Assembly (NCBI GenBank): GCA_023898525.1
Contig: CP060227.1
Coordinates: 823,662 to 887,661 of the forward strand
Length of the DNA stretch: 64,000 bases
Reading direction: 5' to 3'
Source of the DNA: Candidatus Nomurabacteria bacterium
GTDB lineage: Bacteria; Patescibacteriota; Minisyncoccia; Phycocordibacterales; UBA918
This document shows positions 11,041 through 21,651 of the stretch, piece by piece (position 1 is the stretch's first letter; the number at the start of each line of letters is the position of its first letter). The notes under the pieces are model-generated. The model did not search any database and had not been told where the DNA came from. It worked only from the letters and a program-made list of their open reading frames with translations. The position numbers and the translations under genes were made by a program.

Positions 11041-14000
11041 ATGAATTACTCTATTTATAAAAAACCGCAAACAGCTGGATGTGTAAGTAACTCATTTAAT
11101 TTAGCCATTACTAAAAGTGCGAGTTTTGTTCTCGCACTTCTGCTTATATTAGGGTCGTTAGAAAACGTTTCCTTTGCAGCTGTTCTTACTAATGGCGATG
11201 CTGGATATATTACCAACATTCAAACCCGTGATGGAAGTGATCTGTTTAGATCTGATGTACGAGAGGGAAGTGGTGGATTCTTATACGCATATGACATTCC
11301 CGTCCCACCTGGTGTTAACGGCCTCACCCCGCAAATCTCGCTACAGTACAACAGTCAGGGCAGTTCGGACCAAGATATACTTGGCTATGGTTGGAATCTT
11401 TCTATTCCATACATTGAACGGGTGAACAAACACGGCATCAATAAGCTCTTCGACCCCGCCTACGAAACCTTTTACTCCAGTCTTTCTGGTGAGCTTGTAT
11501 TCGATGGGGTAGATTACCTCACAAAAATCAACCAAGGCGACTTCATGAGATATAGCCGATTAAGTAATGGGTGGGTTGTTACTACAAAAGACGGTACCGA
11601 ATATCACTTTGGTTCTGACGTAGTAGCCCAACAGTCAGACCCGACCGATATCACTAACATTTCTCGTTGGTACCTCAGCTCGATTACTGACACTAACGGC
11701 AATATGGTCTCATATTCATACGTTAAAGACACTGGCGCAATTTATCCTAGTACCATCACTTACGGCCCATACACCATCGTGTTCACAACCGAAGCTGCTC
11801 CCACTCACTCGTCCTATAGTCTTGGCTTTAAGGTTGAACGAGATCAGCGTATCAATGCTATTGAAATAAAGGAAAATACCACAATCTTCACTCGACACGA
11901 CCTAACCTACGCTACTGGTATCAATACTCAACGTGACCTTCTGGAGACAATTACTCAAACTGACGTTATCACCAACACTAGCTTACCGGCGGTGATCTTT
12001 GATTACGGCGGCGAAGAAATTCCTCATTGGCAGAGCGACAGTTCGTTTGTATTCCCAGAGCCAATGGGACTTCAAGACAACGGTGTTCGGTTTGGTGACC
12101 TGAATGGTGATGGTCTTACGGATATGATTCGATACGAACGATACTGGAACGACATTCCCTCTGCACGGTGGACAGCTCGTCGTGTACACATCAATAAAGG
12201 CAATGGTAACTGGGATATAGATGTCCCGTGGAGCTGGGATGATATTGAGACACCGTTCTTCTTACACATTAATGATGGTGTATTCAGTAACACCGATAAG
12301 CGTTACGACATGGGCGCGCGCTTAATCGATGTTAACGGAGATGGGCTAGATGACTTCGTCGCTGCTTACAACTGCCTAGACTGGAGTAGTTCAGACTGTT
12401 CAAATGCACCAAACTATATGAAGGAAATTCTAGGTCCAATCCAAATGGATGTCTACCTGAACTCTGGCTCAGGTTTTGTAAAAGACGGCACTAACTGGTT
12501 AAATTTGCAGGCTATGTCTAGTTGGGATTATTCTCCTGCTGATATGACCAATCCAGGCCGAGCATTTGTTGATGTGAATGCTGACGGCTTACCAGACATT
12601 GTTCAATCAGTCGCTACGCTAAACTTCGGCTCGCATCCAAGTGAAAATGTAGCTTCAAATATTTGGATAAACACGGGTAATGATTGGGAACTTTCATCCC
12701 TTACTCTTCCTGCGGCACTTGCCAAATATCCGTGGCACCCTAGTTACCCAAATCTTCGTAAATTCAGTGACTATGGAACTCGATTTGCTGACGTTAACGA
12801 CGATGGGTTAATCGATGTTTTACGAGGATATCGACAGTCATTCAGTGGTAGCGTTAATACGTATACTGACGAAAAAACTGTATACATCAACACTGGTGAT
12901 GGTTGGGAAGAAGACGTGTCTTGGAACTTACCTGTTGAGTTTGTTATTCAAGATCAAACTTCTGGTTATCAGATGTTTGATTTTAACGGTGATAAACTTC
13001 CAGATATTCTTCAATCGCACTACCATAACAATAATGGTTTTAGTTATAATTTATACCTGAACAAAGGTACTACATGGCATCTTGAGAATTACTCAGTGAA
13101 CAGTACTCACTATCCAGTGTATCCTCAGCCACCTTTCCCGCTTACCAGGACAGCCGCTTATACAGGCGGTGGTGGTACGGCTATGATCGATTTTGATGGT
13201 GATAATCTACTTGACGCCTGGAATCTGTATTATCTAGACTTAGATGAAACTCAAAGCTCCGGTGGGAGTGTTTTCCTAAATACTTCAGATATTCCAGACC
13301 TAGTGACCTCAATCATTGATAAAAGCGGTTCCATTACTTCTATCAACTACGACGGCTACCTTGCTACTGTTCAATCAGACTATGTAAAAGTTGGTAACTC
13401 ACCAGTCAATCCGATAGTGGTCACTCATAAAACCATCGATAATAACCACGGTCACACGGTCACTGAAACATATGAGTACAATGATGCTCATCAGTACGTC
13501 GAGGTGAGCGATATTTTTGATCGCAAATTTGCCGGCTTCGGAAAAGTCACCAAAACCACCGATTTAGGAAAAGAAACCACTTACTACCACCAAGGAAACG
13601 GCGTAGCGACTACAACCGAAGAGGGCATAGATGACGAAGCATTAATCGGGCAGGTTTATCGCACAGAAATAACTGATCTTTCTGACAATCTCTATACACT
13701 TTCTCGTCAAAATTTTGCCACCACTTCACTTGGTAACGGCAGTACGTTTGTAAAACTGGAAAGCGGTCTCAAGCTTGATTACGATGGTGATAGCGACAAG
13801 AAAGCTTCGGCCAACAGCTACACCTACGACAACACCAATGGCTCACTCCTTACCAAAACGGAGTGGGGAGAGGTGAGTGGAAATACTGACGGTACTTTCT
13901 CAGATACCGGTACCGACAAGCAAGTGACAACTATTGAGTACGCTACCAATGCGAACGGTATAGTTCTACCATCCAAGCAAACCTTGACCGACAACTCTGA

Positions 14001-17000
14001 CACCAAAGTCCAAGAGTCTCGCTTCTACTACGATAACCAACCGCTTGGCACAGTTACTCTAGGTAACAAGACCAAAGAAGAGAATTGGCTAGGTGGCAGT
14101 AGTTATACAAACAAACAGTGGACATACAACAGCCTAGGGCTGGTAACCGCCGAAACTGATCCAGATGGTAATACCACCAACTATACTTACGATACCTATA
14201 ACTTATATCCAGCTAGTGTCACCAACGCCCTCAATCAAACCACACAGTACGAGTATGACTATTCTTCCGGGCAAGTAGCGACCACCACTGACGCTAATGG
14301 CAATATTTTTGCCACCACTTACGACGGGTTTGGTCGACCGCTTACCGTTACATCACCTGACCCACAGACCGGTACTCCGGTAGTACAGACCGAGTATGTC
14401 TATACCGATACTCCCGGCAGTGTCAGTGTGCAAAAGAAAGATTATCTAAATAGCGGATTAGTTAAAAACTCGTATACTTTCCTAGATGGCTTTGGCCGAA
14501 AGATGCAGGAAAGGCAAGAAGCGGAAGGAATGGATCAATACGTGGTGCGTGATTATGTCTACGGAAGCAATGATCTTTTGGAAAAAGAGTCACTGCCGTA
14601 CTTTGGTACCGGAGCGGCGAGAAGTGCTTCTACCACCAACGCAAACCTCTTAAGCACCTACGCTTACGATCCATTGGCTAGAGTAACAAGCGTAGCAACT
14701 GTGGTTGGTACGACCACTACCGCCTACGACCAATGGAAAGAAACCGTTACCGATACTGCCGGCAATGATAAGGTATTCCAGTATGACGCTTTTGGTCGAT
14801 TGGCAGCCGTGACCGAAAACGAGGGAACCAATTCATACACTACCAACTACACTTGGAATAATCTCGGTAATCTGACCAAGATAACTGACGCCGAAAGTAA
14901 TGTGCGAAATATAAGTTACGACGGACTTGGTCGCCGTACTAGCCTGGAAGATTTGCATGCACCAAGTGATAGTACTTTTGGAACTTGGACTTTTGCTTAT
15001 GACAACGCTGGCAACCTGACCAGCAAGACTAATCCAGAGAGTCAGACTACCAACTACACCTACGACGCTCTTAATCGCCAGTTGACCGAAGACTACACCG
15101 GACAGACTGGTACGGAAATCACTTATACTTATGATACTTGTACGGGTGGCGTGGGGCAACTTTGTACCGCTGCCAATTCTTCCGCTACCACTAACTACAC
15201 CTACACCCCAAACAACCTCTTGGCTTCAGAAGCTAAAACAATAAGTAGCAATACCTACACCACTAGCTATGAGTATGACCGCCAAGGCAACCAAACACTC
15301 ATTACTTATCCAGATAATTCAGAAGTGAAGTACACCTTTAATAAAGGTGGGCAGGTAGACAAAGTGGAACAAAAAGAGGGTGGGGGAACTTTTGCAAACA
15401 TTGTGAGTAATATTGATTATGGACCACATGGTCAGATGGAAAATATCGAATACGGCAATGGCTCTATAACTACTCGTACTTATGATGCGACCGAACTGTA
15501 CCGATTGAAAAATATCCTCACCACTGCCACCAGTACCTATGGCACCGGCGGTCCGGGAGAGGAGCTTATAAGTATTGAAGCCAAACTGGCTTCACTTACC
15601 ACTGAGCTCCCGCTTGCGACTACCAGTGAAGCCTTGGTGGTGGAGACGGTAGAGGAGCCGGTAGAGGAGATGGTCGCAACTTCTTCTGATCTTGCTATCG
15701 AACCGGCTACTTCAGATTCAACTACTGCAACTTCTACTAATATCGAAGCGACAAGTACAAACCAAGAAATAGCCGAAGCCGAACTCACCTCGACTACAAC
15801 CACAACTGATGAGGTGGTGGAGACTAGCGAAATTGCCACCACCACCACGGTCGCTGCTCCAGACGCGACTACCACTGCGTCTTCGTCGTCTGAAACCGCT
15901 ACCGGTACAGCTGACCAAGTGGTGAGTGTGGTAGAAGCTGATGTGGTATTTGATATACCTACCACCACTGCCACCAGTACTTTACCAGCAGTACCAACAG
16001 CTATTGCTTCTACCAGCAGTAACTCCACACCACCAGTTGCGGAAGCGGTGGTAGTTAATCAGGTAGTGGCTAAAAGCAAGCTAAAGCTAAAAATCAACAA
16101 CGCCCACGAAGCCCGAATGTGGCAAAAATACCACCATGAGCGAGTAGCTGGATTAGAAGCAGAGGGAGCTAATCAGGCTGTGCTTGATAAAGCCAAGTAT
16201 GCTCAGGATCAGTTGGAGTCATACTTAATTGAGGATGGTTATCTAAAAGAAAAAGGTGGAAGCGTAAAAGGACACGCTAAAGATTATGTAGAGAGCCAGG
16301 GTAAGAAACTTATAAGCAAAGTGGTGGACTTTATCTTACCGGATACCGTCCAAGCTTACCTATTTGGGTTAGAAGATTTTGAAAATTGTTCAGCTCTTCC
16401 GTGTACCTTTGACAACAATGTATCTTGGGGAGGGGTTACCCCGGCTTTAGATAACACCAGTAAGGTGGCTGGTGCGGATTCACTAAAAGAAACTGTGACT
16501 GGAGAAGGTTCCGGTGGCTTAGAGTTTGTTGATCAAAACACCGGCGAGATTTATGCTCAGTTTAAGGTATTTATTCCGAGTAATATGACTTGGGGACCTT
16601 CCGGTTATCATGGCATTCTTAGATTTGAAGATACGATCAACAACTCAGTTTTCTGGATGAATGTTGAGGATTGGGGCACAGCCAGACTAACCATGATGGG
16701 AGATGTTCTACCGTGGACTGACACCGGAATTGATTTGGTGAAAGGGGCGGTCAACACTATTGAAGTACGCTTTAAGACTGGAGCCACTAACGGCGATGTA
16801 GATATCTGGCTCAACAACACCAACGAAAGTGCACCTGACTACAACGGAAGTGGTACCCTAAACACCGGTACTGATAATGTTGACTATGTAATCGCCGGAG
16901 TTACTTATACTCCCGAAGCGATTAGTACCACCTACTTCGATGATATTGCTATCGACACTACCTTTATTGGTGAGCTAACTTCAGGTGGCCAACCGCCGGT

Positions 17001-18960
17001 GGTGCCATTTGTTGAGAATGTCCAAAACCTTTCCTATACCTACGACACTGTCGGTAATATTACCGAGATAGTAGACAACAGCGGTACCGACTCCGCCGGT
17101 ACCATCACCTACACCTACGACGACCTCTACCGCCTTATCTCAGCTTCCACTACTAATGCTAGTACTACTCCATACCAAGAAACCTATACCTACAACAGTA
17201 TCGGTAACGTCCTCAGCAAGTCTGATGTTGGTACGTATAGTTATGATGGTGGACAGAGTGGAGGAACCAGCTACTACATCTATGACGATAGCATCACTAC
17301 CGGTTGGACAGACTGGTCTTGGTGGACTACCATCAACCCAAGCGCCACCTCTCCTGTCTACTCAGGACTCTATTCATTGGGGTTAGTATACACCCAACCC
17401 TGGGCTGGTATCTCTTATCACAACAACAGTTTCGACAGCTCACCATATGATAATCTAGAGCTGGCGGTTAATGTCGGTACCGACACTACAGCCAATCTCT
17501 ACCTCTATTTCACCAACAGTGCCAGTACACCTTTTACCATCATTAACCTAAAAGACTACGTCACCGGCGGTTTCCAAGCCAACACCTGGCACAGCCTCAC
17601 CATTCCACTTTCAGACTTAGGTTACCAAAACTATCAAGGCGCCACTGAACTAAACATAGAGACCGACCAAGCCGCGACAGTGAATTTTGACAGTATTCGT
17701 TTGACTAGTACCGGCGGAGGAGGAAGCTACGCCAACCCCCACGCTGCCACCACCATCGGCGGCACCACCTACACCTACGACCAAAACGGTAACCTCCTAA
17801 CCGACGGTAATACCACTAACACCTGGAACTACCGCAACGAACTAACTGAGTCCACAAAAGCAGGAATAACGACCAGCTATGGATATGACCACAATGGTGA
17901 TCGAGTGTTCAAGACTACTTCCGAAGGAACGACTTATTATCCTTTCGCTAATTACGAAATTACTGATACTGGTACTACCACAAAGCACATCTACATGGGT
18001 GACCAATTAGTTGCCACGATTGAAGGTTCTGGTGCTGGAGCGTTGACGTATTACAACCATCTTGATCATCTCGGTGGTACCAGTGTGGTAACCGATGGTA
18101 TTGGAGCTATCACCCAAGAATTGGACTACTACCCATTCGGTGATACGAGGATAGATAATGAGTACGGAGACTTTAGACAACATATTCAGCACTCAGGTCA
18201 CCAGAAAGACGATGAAACAGGACTCATCTACCAAGGTGCACGTTACTATAATTCTGGTATCGGACGATATACATCACAAGATCCAGCAAACTTACGAAAT
18301 CCAGCGCAGTTCCTCTATGACCCACAACAGTTAAATACCTATGCGTATGCAAGGAATAATCCACTGAAGTACATTGATCCTACGGGGGAGAAGATTGAGC
18401 TTGTTTCTAGACCAGTAATTTCTTCTTATGATGCACATATGTTCTATCGAGTTACTCCAGATAATCCAGGCCAGATTTCTATTGATGGAATTCCTCAGGG
18501 CACTGAACAGTTTTCGATAGGGGCTTACAACCGAGGTGGTTTCTTAGGTATCGGCAATAAATTGACTCCAGAGTTTAGTTACGAAGGAGGTCCAGTGAAT
18601 ACTGACACCCCATACTTAAACGGGGAAAAGGCGCCTACAGCAAGTGTTGTTATCACACCACCAAACAACATGTCAGATACAGAGTTTATTAACAGTCTTG
18701 GTGCTTCAGCAAATAGTATCGACAAGACAGGTTATTATATGTTTGGTAAAACTGGTAAATTTGGTGTAGCTAATTCAAATAACTTCGTATACGAAGTTGG
18801 TAATAGGAGTGGTGTTGGTAATCAGGTCAGCTCGTTCAATTCAGGTGCATATACTCCAGGACAGAGTCAAGGAATCCCAACTGCAACATTGCTTGATAAT
18901 ATAAGGTCTAGCCTGAACAGTATTAAGGAGAGATTGTCCAAAAAAGATGATAGCGAATAA
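11041..18960 (+). CDS. Giant secreted polymorphic-toxin protein (2639 aa): signal peptide, SpvB/TcB-like N-terminal domain, FG-GAP-like repeats, RHS/YD repeats, S/T-rich linker plus LamG/CBM-like insert, Rhs core, variable C-terminal toxin domain
   Basis: Signal peptide ASFVLALLLILGS. DxNGDGxxD repeats (FGDLNGDGLTDM, IDVNGDGLDDF, VDVNADGLPDIV...). Many YD repeats (YTYDALNRQ, YEYDRQGNQ, YTYDTVGNI). Rhs core GARYYNSGIGRYTSQDP...NTYAYARNNPLKYIDPTGE, followed by about 200 unique residues. Confidence 0.85.
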   Translation: MNYSIYKKPQTAGCVSNSFNLAITKSASFVLALLLILGSLENVSFAAVLTNGDAGYITNIQTRDGSDLFRSDVREGSGGFLYAYDIPVPPGVNGLTPQISLQYNSQGSSDQDILGYGWNLSIPYIERVNKHGINKLFDPAYETFYSSLSGELVFDGVDYLTKINQGDFMRYSRLSNGWVVTTKDGTEYHFGSDVVAQQSDPTDITNISRWYLSSITDTNGNMVSYSYVKDTGAIYPSTITYGPYTIVFTTEAAPTHSSYSLGFKVERDQRINAIEIKENTTIFTRHDLTYATGINTQRDLLETITQTDVITNTSLPAVIFDYGGEEIPHWQSDSSFVFPEPMGLQDNGVRFGDLNGDGLTDMIRYERYWNDIPSARWTARRVHINKGNGNWDIDVPWSWDDIETPFFLHINDGVFSNTDKRYDMGARLIDVNGDGLDDFVAAYNCLDWSSSDCSNAPNYMKEILGPIQMDVYLNSGSGFVKDGTNWLNLQAMSSWDYSPADMTNPGRAFVDVNADGLPDIVQSVATLNFGSHPSENVASNIWINTGNDWELSSLTLPAALAKYPWHPSYPNLRKFSDYGTRFADVNDDGLIDVLRGYRQSFSGSVNTYTDEKTVYINTGDGWEEDVSWNLPVEFVIQDQTSGYQMFDFNGDKLPDILQSHYHNNNGFSYNLYLNKGTTWHLENYSVNSTHYPVYPQPPFPLTRTAAYTGGGGTAMIDFDGDNLLDAWNLYYLDLDETQSSGGSVFLNTSDIPDLVTSIIDKSGSITSINYDGYLATVQSDYVKVGNSPVNPIVVTHKTIDNNHGHTVTETYEYNDAHQYVEVSDIFDRKFAGFGKVTKTTDLGKETTYYHQGNGVATTTEEGIDDEALIGQVYRTEITDLSDNLYTLSRQNFATTSLGNGSTFVKLESGLKLDYDGDSDKKASANSYTYDNTNGSLLTKTEWGEVSGNTDGTFSDTGTDKQVTTIEYATNANGIVLPSKQTLTDNSDTKVQESRFYYDNQPLGTVTLGNKTKEENWLGGSSYTNKQWTYNSLGLVTAETDPDGNTTNYTYDTYNLYPASVTNALNQTTQYEYDYSSGQVATTTDANGNIFATTYDGFGRPLTVTSPDPQTGTPVVQTEYVYTDTPGSVSVQKKDYLNSGLVKNSYTFLDGFGRKMQERQEAEGMDQYVVRDYVYGSNDLLEKESLPYFGTGAARSASTTNANLLSTYAYDPLARVTSVATVVGTTTTAYDQWKETVTDTAGNDKVFQYDAFGRLAAVTENEGTNSYTTNYTWNNLGNLTKITDAESNVRNISYDGLGRRTSLEDLHAPSDSTFGTWTFAYDNAGNLTSKTNPESQTTNYTYDALNRQLTEDYTGQTGTEITYTYDTCTGGVGQLCTAANSSATTNYTYTPNNLLASEAKTISSNTYTTSYEYDRQGNQTLITYPDNSEVKYTFNKGGQVDKVEQKEGGGTFANIVSNIDYGPHGQMENIEYGNGSITTRTYDATELYRLKNILTTATSTYGTGGPGEELISIEAKLASLTTELPLATTSEALVVETVEEPVEEMVATSSDLAIEPATSDSTTATSTNIEATSTNQEIAEAELTSTTTTTDEVVETSEIATTTTVAAPDATTTASSSSETATGTADQVVSVVEADVVFDIPTTTATSTLPAVPTAIASTSSNSTPPVAEAVVVNQVVAKSKLKLKINNAHEARMWQKYHHERVAGLEAEGANQAVLDKAKYAQDQLESYLIEDGYLKEKGGSVKGHAKDYVESQGKKLISKVVDFILPDTVQAYLFGLEDFENCSALPCTFDNNVSWGGVTPALDNTSKVAGADSLKETVTGEGSGGLEFVDQNTGEIYAQFKVFIPSNMTWGPSGYHGILRFEDTINNSVFWMNVEDWGTARLTMMGDVLPWTDTGIDLVKGAVNTIEVRFKTGATNGDVDIWLNNTNESAPDYNGSGTLNTGTDNVDYVIAGVTYTPEAISTTYFDDIAIDTTFIGELTSGGQPPVVPFVENVQNLSYTYDTVGNITEIVDNSGTDSAGTITYTYDDLYRLISASTTNASTTPYQETYTYNSIGNVLSKSDVGTYSYDGGQSGGTSYYIYDDSITTGWTDWSWWTTINPSATSPVYSGLYSLGLVYTQPWAGISYHNNSFDSSPYDNLELAVNVGTDTTANLYLYFTNSASTPFTIINLKDYVTGGFQANTWHSLTIPLSDLGYQNYQGATELNIETDQAATVNFDSIRLTSTGGGGSYANPHAATTIGGTTYTYDQNGNLLTDGNTTNTWNYRNELTESTKAGITTSYGYDHNGDRVFKTTSEGTTYYPFANYEITDTGTTTKHIYMGDQLVATIEGSGAGALTYYNHLDHLGGTSVVTDGIGAITQELDYYPFGDTRIDNEYGDFRQHIQHSGHQKDDETGLIYQGARYYNSGIGRYTSQDPANLRNPAQFLYDPQQLNTYAYARNNPLKYIDPTGEKIELVSRPVISSYDAHMFYRVTPDNPGQISIDGIPQGTEQFSIGAYNRGGFLGIGNKLTPEFSYEGGPVNTDTPYLNGEKAPTASVVITPPNNMSDTEFINSLGASANSIDKTGYYMFGKTGKFGVANSNNFVYEVGNRSGVGNQVSSFNSGAYTPGQSQGIPTATLLDNIRSSLNSIKERLSKKDDSE

Positions 18961-18964
18961 ATAA

Positions 18965-19243
18965 ATGATTATTATGAAAAAACAATTTATATCAGCATAC
19001 CTAGGGTTATCTACAGGAATATTCCCCTTAGTGTGTTACAGAGTTTATGAGAATTATGGGATCAGAGGTGGTCTAAATGAAGTATTAGAGGGACTTTTGC
19101 TCTATTTACTTTTGTTCATTCCAATTTCTATCGTTCTAGTTTTAGCTGCAAAAGTGTTAGAAAAAATGAGTGTAAAATTGAATAATAAAATATTATTCCT
19201 AGTATCGTTGGCAATTGCTGTAATTTTCCTCTACTTGCTGTAG
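18965..19243 (+). CDS. Small 2-TM membrane protein; candidate immunity protein for the Rhs C-terminal toxin
   Basis: 92 aa, hydrophobic, starting 5 nt after the giant gene stop, as in a toxin-immunity arrangement. Confidence 0.4.
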   Translation: MIIMKKQFISAYLGLSTGIFPLVCYRVYENYGIRGGLNEVLEGLLLYLLLFIPISIVLVLAAKVLEKMSVKLNNKILFLVSLAIAVIFLYLL

Positions 19244-19440: not shown

Positions 19441-20200
19441 GGGGTCAGCCACCATTTATGATAAAATAAATGAATGCCAAGAATAAAAAGAGTAGATGTT
19501 GGTGGTGAAGTATATCACGTACTAAATCGTGCTAATGCTCGAGTGCAGATATTTGATAACAAAAAAGATTATCAGCAATTTGAAGAAATACTTGAAGAGG
19601 CTATTGAAAAATACGAAGTACCATTACTGGCATATTGTGTTATGCCAAATCACTGGCATATGGTACTGCAACCAAAACAAGATGGTGATATGCAGAAATT
19701 TATTGGGTGGCTTTCTAATACGCATACTCGTAGGTGGCATGTTACAAAAGATACAATAGGTCAAGGTCATCTATATCAGGGTCGATACAAATCATTTATT
19801 TGCGAACAAGACCATCACCTACTTACAGTTCTTAGATACGTTGAACGAAACGCTAAAAAAGCAAATTTAGTCAAAAAGGCTGAAGACTGGCAATGGTCAA
19901 GTGTATGGAGAAGAGAAAATGGTACTTTAGAACAAAAGAAAATATTAAGTAACTGGCCTATATCTATACCAAGAGACTATTTAAATCTTCTTAATAAACC
20001 TATGAATGAGTCTGAAGAAGAGGCTTTAGAAAAATCAGAAGAAAGAAGTATACCTTTTGGAGAAGAGGAGTGGGTTAATAGAAAAGTTAAAAAGTATGAG
20101 ATTGAACAAGTGTTACGGGGAGTAGGTAGACCTAAAAATGGTGGCTGACCCCATTTCTGACCCCATTTCCCCATTTCCACCATTTCCATTTCCGGAAAGG
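19441..20200 (+). mobile_element. REPtron-like unit: rayT gene flanked by inverted REP-like repeats, plus a CCATTTC tandem array
   Basis: GGGGTCAGCCACC at 19441-19453 and its exact reverse complement GGTGGCTGACCCC at 20140-20152. Then CCCCATTTC-type units repeat 5 times (20149-20200). Confidence 0.6.
19474..20148 (+). CDS. rayT: REP-associated tyrosine transposase RayT (Y1 HUH transposase, IS200-like fold) with a C-terminal extension
   Basis: YHVLNRAN. HUH motif PNHWHMV. GHLYQGRYKS. RYVERNAKKANLV...WQWSS. Confidence 0.8.
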   Translation: MPRIKRVDVGGEVYHVLNRANARVQIFDNKKDYQQFEEILEEAIEKYEVPLLAYCVMPNHWHMVLQPKQDGDMQKFIGWLSNTHTRRWHVTKDTIGQGHLYQGRYKSFICEQDHHLLTVLRYVERNAKKANLVKKAEDWQWSSVWRRENGTLEQKKILSNWPISIPRDYLNLLNKPMNESEEEALEKSEERSIPFGEEEWVNRKVKKYEIEQVLRGVGRPKNGG

Positions 20201-20276: not shown

Positions 20277-20957
20277 ATGCAATGTATTATTTTGGCGGCT
20301 GGCAAGGGATCAAGACTTAGGCCGATAACAGACACTATCCCTAAACCGTTAGTGAAAGTTGACGGAAAAACCCTGATGGATCACGTAGTAGGGGCGTTAC
20401 CTAGTTCAATAAAGGAATTGATTATTGTTGTAGGTTATAAAGGTGACATGATAAGGGAATACTGTGGGGACAGCTTTTACGGACGACCGGTTACTTATTT
20501 GGAACAAAAGGAAATAAATGGTCCGGCCAAGGCGTTATGGCTCGCCAAAGATTTGATTAAAGGACGATTTCTTTTTATGTTTGCTGATGATATTCATGGT
20601 CGTGACGACATGGCGAGGGCGGTTTCTTATAGTCGCTCTATCTTGGCAACCACCAGTGACACTCCGGAACGCTTTGGTGTAATTGTTCGTAACCCTGATG
20701 GTACGATTGCTGATATGGTAGAAAAACCTTCATCCCCATCCTCCAATTTAGTTGCTACCGGACCAATGGTGTTGGATCAGCATATCTTTGATTTTGCTCC
20801 CGAGGCACCAATTAATGGTGAATATTTCATGCCTGAAATAATTATGCGCTATAAGGAGAAATATCCAATGGCGGTTGTGGAAGAGAACTTTTGGTTGGCG
20901 ATTGGTTACCCTGAAGACTTGGAAAAAGCTGAAAAGAAGATACAATCACTATCTTAA
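20277..20957 (+). CDS. Sugar-phosphate nucleotidyltransferase (NTP_transferase family)
   Basis: N-terminal MQCIILAAGKGSRLRPITDTIPKPL is the G-x-G-x-R pyrophosphorylase motif. Confidence 0.7.
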   Translation: MQCIILAAGKGSRLRPITDTIPKPLVKVDGKTLMDHVVGALPSSIKELIIVVGYKGDMIREYCGDSFYGRPVTYLEQKEINGPAKALWLAKDLIKGRFLFMFADDIHGRDDMARAVSYSRSILATTSDTPERFGVIVRNPDGTIADMVEKPSSPSSNLVATGPMVLDQHIFDFAPEAPINGEYFMPEIIMRYKEKYPMAVVEENFWLAIGYPEDLEKAEKKIQSLS

Positions 20958-20967
20958 ATAATTTATT

Positions 20968-21651
20968 ATGCAATGTGTTATCCTGGCGGCGGGAAAAGGA
21001 ACCCGCATGCGGCCTTTAACTGAACAAACTCCAAAACCGTTAATAGAAGTCTGTGGCAAACCTTTATTGCAGCATATCGTCGAAGCTTTGCCTGATGAAG
21101 TCGATGAAATAATCTTAGTGGTTAATTATCTTGAGGAGCAAATAAGGCGACATTGCGGTCTGCATTACTGCGGTAAATTGGTTCAGTATGTGCACCAAGA
21201 GAACGCGGTTGGGGGGACTGGTGAGGCTTTGCTGGCTGCGGCGCCACTTATCGAAGGAAGGTTTATGTTTATGTATGCTGATGACATTCATGGGTCGTAT
21301 GCTCTCAAAGCAGCTGTAACTTATCCTTATGCAATGCTTTCGGTGCAGCACGATGAACCACAGCATTTTGGTGTTTTGGATCTAAACTCGGACGGCACTC
21401 TCAAGGCTATTCATGAAAAGCCAGCAGAACCTACATCTAATCTTATAAACATCGGCGGGATGGTTTTGGACAAAAAGATATTTAAATATGATGTGGCACG
21501 GTCAGCGAATGGCGAATTGTATGTGACCGATATGGTAACGGCTTTTGCTCAGGATTATCCTGTTATGGTAGTGGAGCAATCTTTGTGGTTGCCGCTTGGG
21601 AAGCCGGAGGATATTTTGGCGGCGGAAAAAATGCTAGGGTGCAACCGGTAA
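20968..21651 (+). CDS. Sugar-phosphate nucleotidyltransferase, tandem paralog of the upstream gene
   Basis: MQCVILAAGKGTRMRPLTEQTPKPL. Alignable to the upstream gene along its whole length. Confidence 0.7.
   Translation: MQCVILAAGKGTRMRPLTEQTPKPLIEVCGKPLLQHIVEALPDEVDEIILVVNYLEEQIRRHCGLHYCGKLVQYVHQENAVGGTGEALLAAAPLIEGRFMFMYADDIHGSYALKAAVTYPYAMLSVQHDEPQHFGVLDLNSDGTLKAIHEKPAEPTSNLINIGGMVLDKKIFKYDVARSANGELYVTDMVTAFAQDYPVMVVEQSLWLPLGKPEDILAAEKMLGCNR

Follow-up and report, generated by a model that had tools for sequence, protein, structure and literature searches.

RHS and Tc toxin cocoons are usually viewed as passive containers that are aimed by TcA, by the type VI secretion system or by teneurin extracellular domains, and in the Tc toxins receptor binding is carried out by TcA domains and not by the cocoon. 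Here we describe a gene found in a 64,000-nucleotide (nt) stretch of the genome of a Candidatus Nomurabacteria bacterium (contig CP060227.1, positions 823,662 to 887,661; hereafter the window). This gene encodes a SpvB/FG-GAP/RHS protein of 2639 amino acids (aa), the query of this study, whose YD-repeat shell is interrupted by two long insertions. The interpretation that we favor, with reasonable though limited confidence, is that a domain cassette has been accommodated by a permissive loop between repeats in the TcC-like half, that a module resembling carbohydrate-binding module (CBM) family 8 follows downstream, and that these modules, displayed on the outer face of the cocoon, target envelope polysaccharide.

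The BC cocoons of the Tc toxins (TcdB2-TccC3 and YenB-YenC2) share with the query a SpvB-like N-terminus, an FG-GAP propeller, a YD shell, an Rhs core, and an encapsulated C-terminal toxin. In contrast to these cocoons, the query is a single chain that starts with a putative signal peptide, and no gene of the size of TcA was found in the window, where the largest other open reading frame (ORF) is ligA (672 aa). Furthermore, inserts of 496 and 162 aa break the query shell at sites whose YenC2 equivalents, at residues ~320 and ~395, are short loops. 'TcdB/TcaC-type' polymorphic toxins, as described in PMC3482391, consist of a signal peptide, SpvB, an integrin-like propeller, RHS repeats, and a variable C-terminal toxin, and the query has this architecture; a text search of that paper gave no match to 'inserted', 'FG-GAP' or 'carbohydrate-binding'. 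Based on the Pfam matches, the Rhs core alignment, the variable tail, and the profile match to TcdB2-TccC3, the query is predicted to be a Sec-exported single-chain TcB-TcC-like cocoon belonging to this class.

Decorated YD shells are already known from SGS1, the teneurins, and the TcB propeller, and the query is not categorically new in this respect. In the cryo-electron microscopy structure of salivary gland surface protein 1 of Aedes aegypti (SGS1; 8FJP), a CBM and a lectin carbohydrate-recognition domain are inserted in the Rhs/YD shell ~80 residues apart and lie side by side on its outer face; they were proposed to be receptor- or glycan-binding domains and were undetectable by sequence annotation (PMC9935623). 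The query resembles SGS1 in that predicted beta-sandwich domains of a TcB/TcC-like cocoon are formed by segments inserted in the YD sequence, in this case 79 residues apart. However, SGS1 is a eukaryotic (mosquito) protein whose inserts are located mid-shell, shortly past the second propeller, whereas those of the query are located in the last quarter, ~450 and ~215 aa before the core end. SGS1 also has neither a long acidic tether nor a helix unit, and its C-terminal cargo consists of transmembrane helices. No sequence similarity to SGS1 was found among the core phmmer matches or the family profile matches, and Foldseek gave a weak match with a poor model. Because the insertion sites are not alignable by sequence and their relative positions differ, the insertions in the query and SGS1 are probably independent. 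In teneurin-like proteins (PMC13018210), extra domains likewise decorate a YD shell, namely an NHL propeller and an FN-plug, but they are attached at other positions.

Insertions in the YD-repeat shell

The YD repeats of the query stop at aa 1497 (...TRTYDATELYRLKNILTTA) and restart at aa 1994 (VQNLSYTYDTVGNIT...). Three shell segments, aa 1380-1497 (anchor A), aa 1994-2072 (anchor B), and aa 2235-2420, were compared with 120 homologs by BLAST. Anchor A was conserved in all of them. The gap between anchors A and B was 496 aa in the query (aa 1498-1993, nt 15532-17019) as against 3-7 aa in about 40 homologs with total lengths of 1884-2050 aa, and the gap between anchor B and the third anchor was 162 aa as against 5-18 aa in most of the 120 homologs. 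Since the flanking YD segments are near-contiguous in homologs, both shell interruptions are true insertions. When both inserts are subtracted, the query measures ~1980 aa, which is the basal length of the family. A first-pass annotation of this DNA had assumed that YD shells are normally continuous; this is false in the present family, two thirds of which bear an insert at the first site, and SGS1 is a structurally solved precedent (PMC9935623). On the other hand, the insertion of about 500 aa that it had reported is real, and the region does not continue the beta-spiral of the shell.

The query is 100% identical to an NCBI entry (homolog P0009) derived from a metagenome-assembled genome and annotated solely as 'VCBS repeat-containing protein [Candidatus Nomurabacteria bacterium]'. 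Its N-terminal part (1497 aa) has approximately the length of TcB, and low-complexity linkers are often protease sites. The interruption could accordingly be imagined as an artefact, namely a chimeric assembly, two genes that have become fused, or two chains cleaved in the linker like the TcB/TcC split. We consider this highly improbable. The reading frame is single and uninterrupted, and the order of shell, tether, helices, jelly roll, YD repeats, CBM, YD repeats, and core is repeated in at least nine full-length proteins from independent contigs with 44-49% shell identity. In addition, the first insertion site lies at ~residue 320 of YenC2/TccC, ~300 profile positions beyond the TcB/TcC junction, and cleavage in the linker would leave the architecture unchanged.

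The first insertion site (site 1) is a family-wide insertion hot spot. When 120 full-length members of the family, for which at least 915 relatives were detected, were aligned by hmmalign to a profile of 20 insertion-free members, 80 of these proteins had an insert of 60 aa or more at site 1 (profile position 1488), with a median length of 542 aa and a maximum of 1546 aa. Minor sites were found at positions 1537 (7 proteins, including the query with its second insert), 1617 (7 proteins), and 1671 (11 proteins), and the insertions elsewhere were singletons. The content of site 1 varied. At the curated Pfam thresholds, it contained Laminin_G_3 in P0034 (88.8 bits) and P0017 (61.3 bits), CBM_4_9 together with Ig_Rha78A_N in P0106, PKD in P0064, and Ig_Rha78A_N in P0011 and P0022, and the downstream site of P0047 contained Gly_rich_2 and a bacterial surface immunoglobulin (Ig)-like domain.

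Site 1 corresponds to the YenC2 loop '...IKTERPNGHAAGAKVLQDLRYEYD...' (~residues 319-328) and site 2 to ~residue 395 of YenC2; the YD segment separating both inserts aligns with '...LQDLRYEYDPVGNV...' near residue 330 of the same protein. The idea that site 1 represents the old TcB/TcC junction was rejected, because both sites lie well within the TcC-like half (residues 207-639 of TccC2 were placed on profile positions 1386-1758, and site 1 at 1486-1490). Among the relatives, P0013, P0015, and P0016 (at site 2) as well as P0054 and P0043 had either an extra domain of ~190 aa beside the CBM8-like module or two tandem copies of the module, the CBM8-like module of P0021 and P0023 was located one or two YD repeats further downstream, and in P0064 the main slot was preceded by a CBM_4_9 domain. 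Because of these extra, tandem, and shifted modules, it is apparent that several loops toward the C-terminal end of the shell are permissive.

Insert 1 starts with an acidic tether (Table 1). The T/S/A/E-rich low-complexity linker placed at 15540-16080 by the first-pass annotation was found at nearly these positions, and proved to be both acidic and poorly conserved. It consists of 22% T, 14% A, 12% S, 12% E, and 11% V, contains two aromatic residues, and has a net charge of -27; nowhere else in the protein is there so long a series of windows of lowest entropy. In nine full-length homologs having the same cassette, the tethers were 112-178 aa long with net charges of -18 to -33, and were rich in T and E in eight and in A, P, and E in one. 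Their sequences were barely conserved except for a short 'STYGTGGPG(D/E)EL' start. The biased composition together with the poor sequence conservation suggests that the tether is probably a disordered linker. A DNA tandem repeat as the basis of the tether was considered and rejected, the sole repeat being a 12-nt unit in 2.8 copies. An antisense ORF of 163 aa (15537-16028, minus strand) lies wholly within the tether-coding region, where the GC content is 0.515 compared with 0.40-0.49 in the other segments of the gene; this ORF is most likely spurious and a consequence of the biased composition.

Folds and exchange of the inserted modules

The tether is followed by a three-helix unit and a beta-jelly roll. 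AlphaFold prediction of aa 1677-2000 with 57 sequences (predicted local distance difference test score (pLDDT), 89.5; predicted template modelling score, 0.85) gave three helices and then a two-sheet beta-sandwich, and aa 1775-1972 show the two-sheet arrangement of a beta-jelly roll. In the model, the helices comprise residues 12-31, 36-55, and 70-89, with pLDDT values of ~91-97 for the first two and ~61-77 for the third. The helix unit (aa 1688-1765), which was absent from the first-pass annotation, was accompanied by the jelly roll in every occurrence among the 120 listed RHS homologs, and the helical region alone was matched by a few short stand-alone fragments. A word-indexed homolog search with aa 1681-2240 returned 8 matches and missed full-length relatives of 60% identity; it was replaced by full-length and exhaustive profile searches. 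The exhaustive HMMER profile search with the helix and jelly-roll region detected 153 cluster representatives (50% identity).

A jelly-roll profile built from 11 sequences found no relative in the PDB. The profile broadened to 57 sequences matched Cip1 with an E-value of 1e-10 over the whole domain. The jelly roll of the query falls in the same Cip1-like/polysaccharide-lyase-like branch of the concanavalin-A-like fold as the Cip1 core (3ZYP), the PL20 glucuronan lyase (2ZZJ), and TtX122A (8Q28), with identities of 13-21%. It differs from them in having the additional N-terminal three-helix unit and a conserved Cys-x4-Cys pair (C1783 and C1788), and in being located in RHS shells or phage-like contigs instead of being attached to carbohydrate-active enzymes. 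In the hidden Markov model (HMM) alignment, Glu7 of Cip1 corresponded to the conserved E1781 ('..EDFE..') and Asp206 to D1967 (the first D of 'YFDDI'), and the latter position was kept in at least 90% of the 57 sequences. The comparison of the calcium site covered these two residues, whose roles as calcium ligands in Cip1 are described in PMC3764139. Judging from this alignment, the jelly roll probably binds calcium.

Pfam gave no useful match on the insert segments aa 1501-1760, 1761-2020, and 2021-2253. The query jelly roll matched neither PF21340 (Cip1-like) nor PF14099 (Polysacc_lyase), for which distant relatives scored 18.7-20.9 bits against cut-offs of 27-29.9, and it had no match to the LamG/Laminin_G_3 and 3keto-disac_hyd models PF13385, PF02210, and PF06439 even at E-values up to 10. 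A single distant relative reached 18.5 bits against PF06439 (former DUF1080; cut-off, 26.8). The expectation that profiles of LamG, CBM or DUF1080 would identify the domain was thus not borne out by the Pfam models on the query, its distant relatives giving sub-threshold matches to Polysacc_lyase, the Cip1-like family, and 3keto-disac_hyd. At the profile level, the jelly roll is homologous to Cip1/PL20-like proteins without being a Pfam member.

Insert 2 resembles a CBM. An insert-2 profile built from 16 sequences matched DdCBM8 of Dictyostelium discoideum (7T7Y) with an E-value of 4.2e-11, profile positions 4-147 being aligned with chain residues 5-150, and gave weak matches to CBM30 (1WMX and 2C24) and endoglucanase H (7VT4). 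In a Foldseek search with a rough, low-confidence model of insert 2, 7T7Y ranked first (template modelling score of 0.66 on the target), and was followed by CBM30, CBM11 (1V0A), CBM6, and CBM15. An aromatic triad of insert 2, W2092, W2094, and W2121, was paired with W21, W23, and Y49 of the 7T7Y chain, which would be W572, W574, and Y600 of DdCBM8 (offset, 551) since the spacing is identical. In DdCBM8, these three residues form a planar aromatic platform, Q686 is also a binding residue, and the W572A and Y600A mutations abolished polysaccharide binding (PMC9079177). Insert 2 shows a full-length profile match to DdCBM8 and, as aligned, the W-x-W motif and the aromatic platform, but the identity is ~17%, and insert 2 lies in a toxin shell whereas DdCBM8 is appended to a GH9 endoglucanase. 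Because of the weaker matches to CBM30, CBM11, CBM6, and CBM15, insert 2 can be assigned, as far as its sequence indicates, to the general beta-sandwich CBM group.

The first-pass annotation had proposed a Trp/Asn/Thr-rich concanavalin- or CBM-like domain at about 16500-17000 and a second CBM-like domain at 17280-17700. The former holds at the level of the fold, but its nearest neighbours include enzymes; the latter was recovered both by the profile (7T7Y, E-value of 4e-11) and at the top of the Foldseek list. Together with the linker, all three elements had been located correctly to within ~50-150 nt.

Cassettes are shuffled between shells, because the closest shell relative of the query bears another cassette. 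This relative, P0011, is 62% identical to the query over the 1450-aa N-terminal shell, 84% over the segment between the inserts, and 58% over the core; its site 1 contains a different cassette of 655 aa, and its site 2 is empty. The nine proteins sharing the cassette of the query showed identities to it of 44-48% in the shell and 49-66% in the jelly roll. The cassette borders are conserved ('STYGTGGPG' and 'QDLxYTYDxVGNIT').

RHS toxins and phage-like elements also appear to have the helix and jelly-roll module in common. As a stand-alone protein with a signal peptide, it measures 340-370 aa (P0131, P0132, and P0148-151). In phage-like contigs, the gene for the stand-alone module comes after genes for proteins of 1100-1400 aa; PHROGs gave no match on the large proteins beside the module. 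A holin gene (Phage_holin_4_1, phrog_199) is next downstream of the module gene in contig L003, and a gene for a 392-aa protein intervenes in contig L001. A gene for an M23 peptidase lies near the module gene of P0131, a protein encoded near the module gene in another phage-like contig had weak tail-fibre matches, and one relative of the module is encoded on the IMG/VR viral contig UViG_3300009702_000036. Concanavalin-like domains of similar shape are common among predicted phage virion proteins. Contig L003 also encodes a Gly_rich_2 protein, and Gly_rich_2 fills the downstream insertion site of other RHS relatives.

Because the structures nearest to the jelly roll are polysaccharide lyases and Cip1, the jelly roll could be an enzyme instead of a lectin. 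If so, it would be an active polysaccharide lyase or glycan-degrading enzyme that clears capsule, a teichuronic-acid-like polymer, or another acidic envelope polymer and thereby gives the cocoon or, in the stand-alone form, the phage access to the cell surface. Such an activity would agree with the sub-threshold Pfam matches of distant relatives to Polysacc_lyase and the Cip1-like lyase-like family, with the occurrence of the stand-alone form near the lysis genes of phage-like contigs, where depolymerases are common, and with conserved basic residues on the strands, R1882 (ARLTM), R1910, and K1912 (EVRFK). However, the putative cleft residues His98 and Arg100 of Cip1 align with non-conserved hydrophobic positions according to our reading of the profile alignment. 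Cip1 itself has shown no convincing lyase activity and has no established activity or ligand (PMC3764139), and clearly non-catalytic modules (Laminin_G_3, CBM_4_9, PKD, and Ig) occupy the same slot elsewhere in the family. We therefore regard a catalytic jelly roll as rather unlikely.

Layout of the gene and its neighbourhood

The features of the gene and of the related loci are summarized in Table 1.

Table 1. Coordinates of the RHS gene, its parts, the adjacent ORF, and the stand-alone module genes
Feature	Residues (aa)	Position (nt)	Strand	Basis
SpvB/FG-GAP/RHS protein, entire gene	2639 in total	11041..18960	+	one uninterrupted ORF
Predicted signal peptide or membrane anchor; hydrophobic core SFVLALLLILGSL then VSFA/A	1-47	11041..11181	+	translation, by eye
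SpvB-like N-terminal region and FG-GAP (integrin-like) beta-propeller, approximate boundaries	~84-760	11290..13320	+	
YD-repeat shell, first part, up to insertion site 1	~780-1497	13378..15531	+	YD motifs; anchor A
Insert 1, part a: acidic T/A/S/E/V low-complexity tether, 178 aa	1498-1675	15532..16065	+	composition, entropy, charge
Insert 1, part b: three-helix unit	helices 1688-1707, 1712-1731, 1746-1765	16102..16335	+	AlphaFold model m27ac3f48a9f3
Insert 1, part c: concanavalin-A-like beta-jelly roll, Cip1/PL20-lyase-like	1775-1972	16363..16956	+	
Short connector back to the shell	1973-1993	16957..17019	+	pLDDT <65 past model residue 300; anchor B from aa 1994
YD segment separating both inserts, 79 aa	1994-2072	17020..17256	+	anchor B, kept in all homologs
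Insert 2: CBM8/CBM30/CBM11-like predicted beta-sandwich, 162 aa	2073-2234	17257..17742	+	profile, Foldseek
Last YD repeats and Rhs-associated core, end ...NNPLKYIDPTGE	2235-2450	17743..18390	+	phmmer
C-terminal variable (toxin) domain, 189 aa	2451-2639	18391..18957	+	
ORF with about three hydrophobic segments, 4 nt past the RHS stop codon	92 in total	18965..19243	+	translation, position
Stand-alone helix and jelly-roll gene, contig L001		10001-11071		
Stand-alone helix and jelly-roll gene, contig L003		10001-11029		
Stand-alone helix and jelly-roll gene, contig L006		7872-8936		

In the N-terminal half of the query, Pfam detected SpvB at aa 84-153 (40.7 bits; cut-off, 22) and FG-GAP_3 at aa 584-657 (26.3 bits, slightly below the cut-off of 26.9). 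Matches of the family profile included the SpvB structure (6P0X) and, in TcdB1 and YenB, the N-terminal half; profile positions 343-826 corresponded to residues ~335-800 of TcdB1/YenB, and positions 467-660 matched integrin alpha propellers. D(V/L)NGDGL motifs recur in the translation of this region, and this recurrence, together with the profile alignment to TcdB1 335-796 and to integrins, identifies an FG-GAP/integrin-like propeller. RHS_repeat was detected with 97.1 bits across nine stretches. The insertion-free family profile matched the TcdB2-TccC3 fusion with an E-value of 6e-68, and also matched TcdB1/YenB and TccC2/YenC2 separately.

A phmmer search with the query gave matches to the C-terminal cores of solved Rhs proteins, namely 8H8A (E-value, 2e-19), 7Q97, Tse5, and teneurin-like proteins, all of which stop at aa 2449-2453 of the query; aa 2239-2450 align to the core ends of 8H8A, 7Q97, and Tse5 with E-values of 2e-19 to 3e-16. 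The query thus has an Rhs core with the DPxG motif, terminating in ...YIDPTGE, and a variable C-terminal toxin domain behind it. The toxin domain had no match in Pfam or the PDB. Homologs of this tail with 27-37% identity end P0041, P0026, P0047, P0096, and P0068, and the tail differs between homologs; it can be classed by its sequence as an uncharacterised toxin family. A metagenomic protein of 731 aa (P0005) has the N-terminus of a Y-family DNA polymerase (PF00817) followed by the same YD/core/toxin tail, and is either a gene-calling or assembly chimera or else a recombination product.

In view of the usual toxin-immunity gene order, the 92-aa ORF immediately downstream is a candidate immunity protein gene, and a membrane-embedded immunity protein would hint at a membrane-acting toxin. 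Directly downstream of the toxin and putative immunity pair, there is an IS200-like Y1 transposase gene (PF01797, E-value of 3e-21; 19474-20148, plus strand), which may serve to mobilize or rearrange the toxin locus. Beyond the toxin locus, two adjacent paralogous sugar-nucleotidyltransferase genes (20277-20957 and 20968-21651, plus strand; NTP_transferase, E-values of 5e-34 and 2e-30) may be involved in envelope glycan synthesis. The genes around the toxin locus are housekeeping genes (ligA, gatC, and gatA).

Proposed role of the inserted modules

The inserts (~55 and 17 kDa, ~72 kDa together) cannot share the lumen of the cocoon with the toxin, and SGS1 provides a precedent for an outer location. 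Based on these two considerations, we infer that both beta-sandwich modules face outward. Their sequences suggest that the inserted modules would bind glycans, and the cocoon would presumably act independently of TcA. In the mechanism that we propose, the protein would be exported by its signal peptide, and both beta-sandwich modules on the outer face of the cocoon would then tie the toxin-loaded shell to polysaccharide of the target cell envelope. Recombination could subsequently refill the slot with different adhesion or glycan-binding modules, part of which would be common to phage-like contigs, resulting in altered specificity. By such a cassette swap, the toxin would be re-addressed to another cell.

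Several points weigh against the targeting of envelope polysaccharide by outward-facing modules. The structures closest to the jelly roll belong to enzymes (PL20, PL14, and PL7 lyases and GH131) and to Cip1, Pfam lectin and CBM models stayed below threshold on both inserts of the query, and Q686 of DdCBM8 aligns near L, N, or E in the insert-2 profile, where conservation is not clear. As for the structure, prediction supported an independent fold for aa 1677-2000, but the AlphaFold run covering aa 1676-2242 with nine sequences had a mean pLDDT of 53.8 and reached 80-92 just in the C-terminal half of insert 2. This interpretation leaves unexplained what the three-helix unit does and why the tether is as long as 112-178 aa. 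Finally, the evidence that the contigs come from phages consists of the holin, the M23 peptidase, the weak tail-fibre matches, and one IMG/VR entry.

The inserted modules might instead anchor or display the cocoon on the envelope of the producer itself, in the way that wall-associated RHS proteins are held by their cell-wall-binding regions, with the tether serving as a stalk. The translation shows a signal peptide at the N-terminus and no other obvious anchor, and the acidic T/E-rich tether resembles wall-spanning or glycosylated stalks; moreover, should the phage-like contigs derive from phages that infect Patescibacteria, a phage module would be expected to bind a Patescibacteria surface glycan. 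However, the tether is internal, forming a loop with both ends in the shell, which is not compatible with a simple stalk, and the high turnover of cassettes between close shells fits better with diversifying target recognition. We consider such self-anchoring unlikely, and retain recognition of the target envelope as the preferred interpretation.

A broader proposal, which we put forward tentatively as possible but short of probable, is that the site-1 loop in this RHS family, found mostly in Patescibacteria, is a dedicated recombination-prone receptor-binding slot. Its modules, such as the helix and Cip1-like jelly roll and the Gly-rich, LamG, CBM, and Ig domains, would be traded with the tail proteins of phages infecting the same cells, and the Sec-exported cocoon would find, and perhaps enzymatically open, the target glycan without a TcA-like translocator. 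If this is true, the helix and jelly-roll unit would represent a previously undescribed family of phage/toxin receptor-binding or depolymerase modules.

In the literature searched, the coverage of which was incomplete, neither insertions in bacterial RHS shells nor RHS toxins of Patescibacteria were described, and the candidates for glycan-binding domains on RHS cocoons were the SGS1 paper and a CASP15 overview. One dominant slot that is occupied in two thirds of the members of a large bacterial family, the exchange of cassettes, and an unannotated module shared with phage-like contigs did not turn up there. The present analysis defines an unannotated domain family that comprises the helix unit and the Cip1-like jelly roll, and shows that the decorated shell of mosquito SGS1 has counterparts in bacteria. 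In this family, the container itself bears exchangeable modules of a glycan-recognition type at one fixed loop. If these modules set specificity, new binding domains could be engineered into RHS cocoons at this permissive loop, toxin targeting would be linked to the receptor-binding modules of phages, and the slot would be a readable 'address label' predicting the cells attacked by a given toxin.

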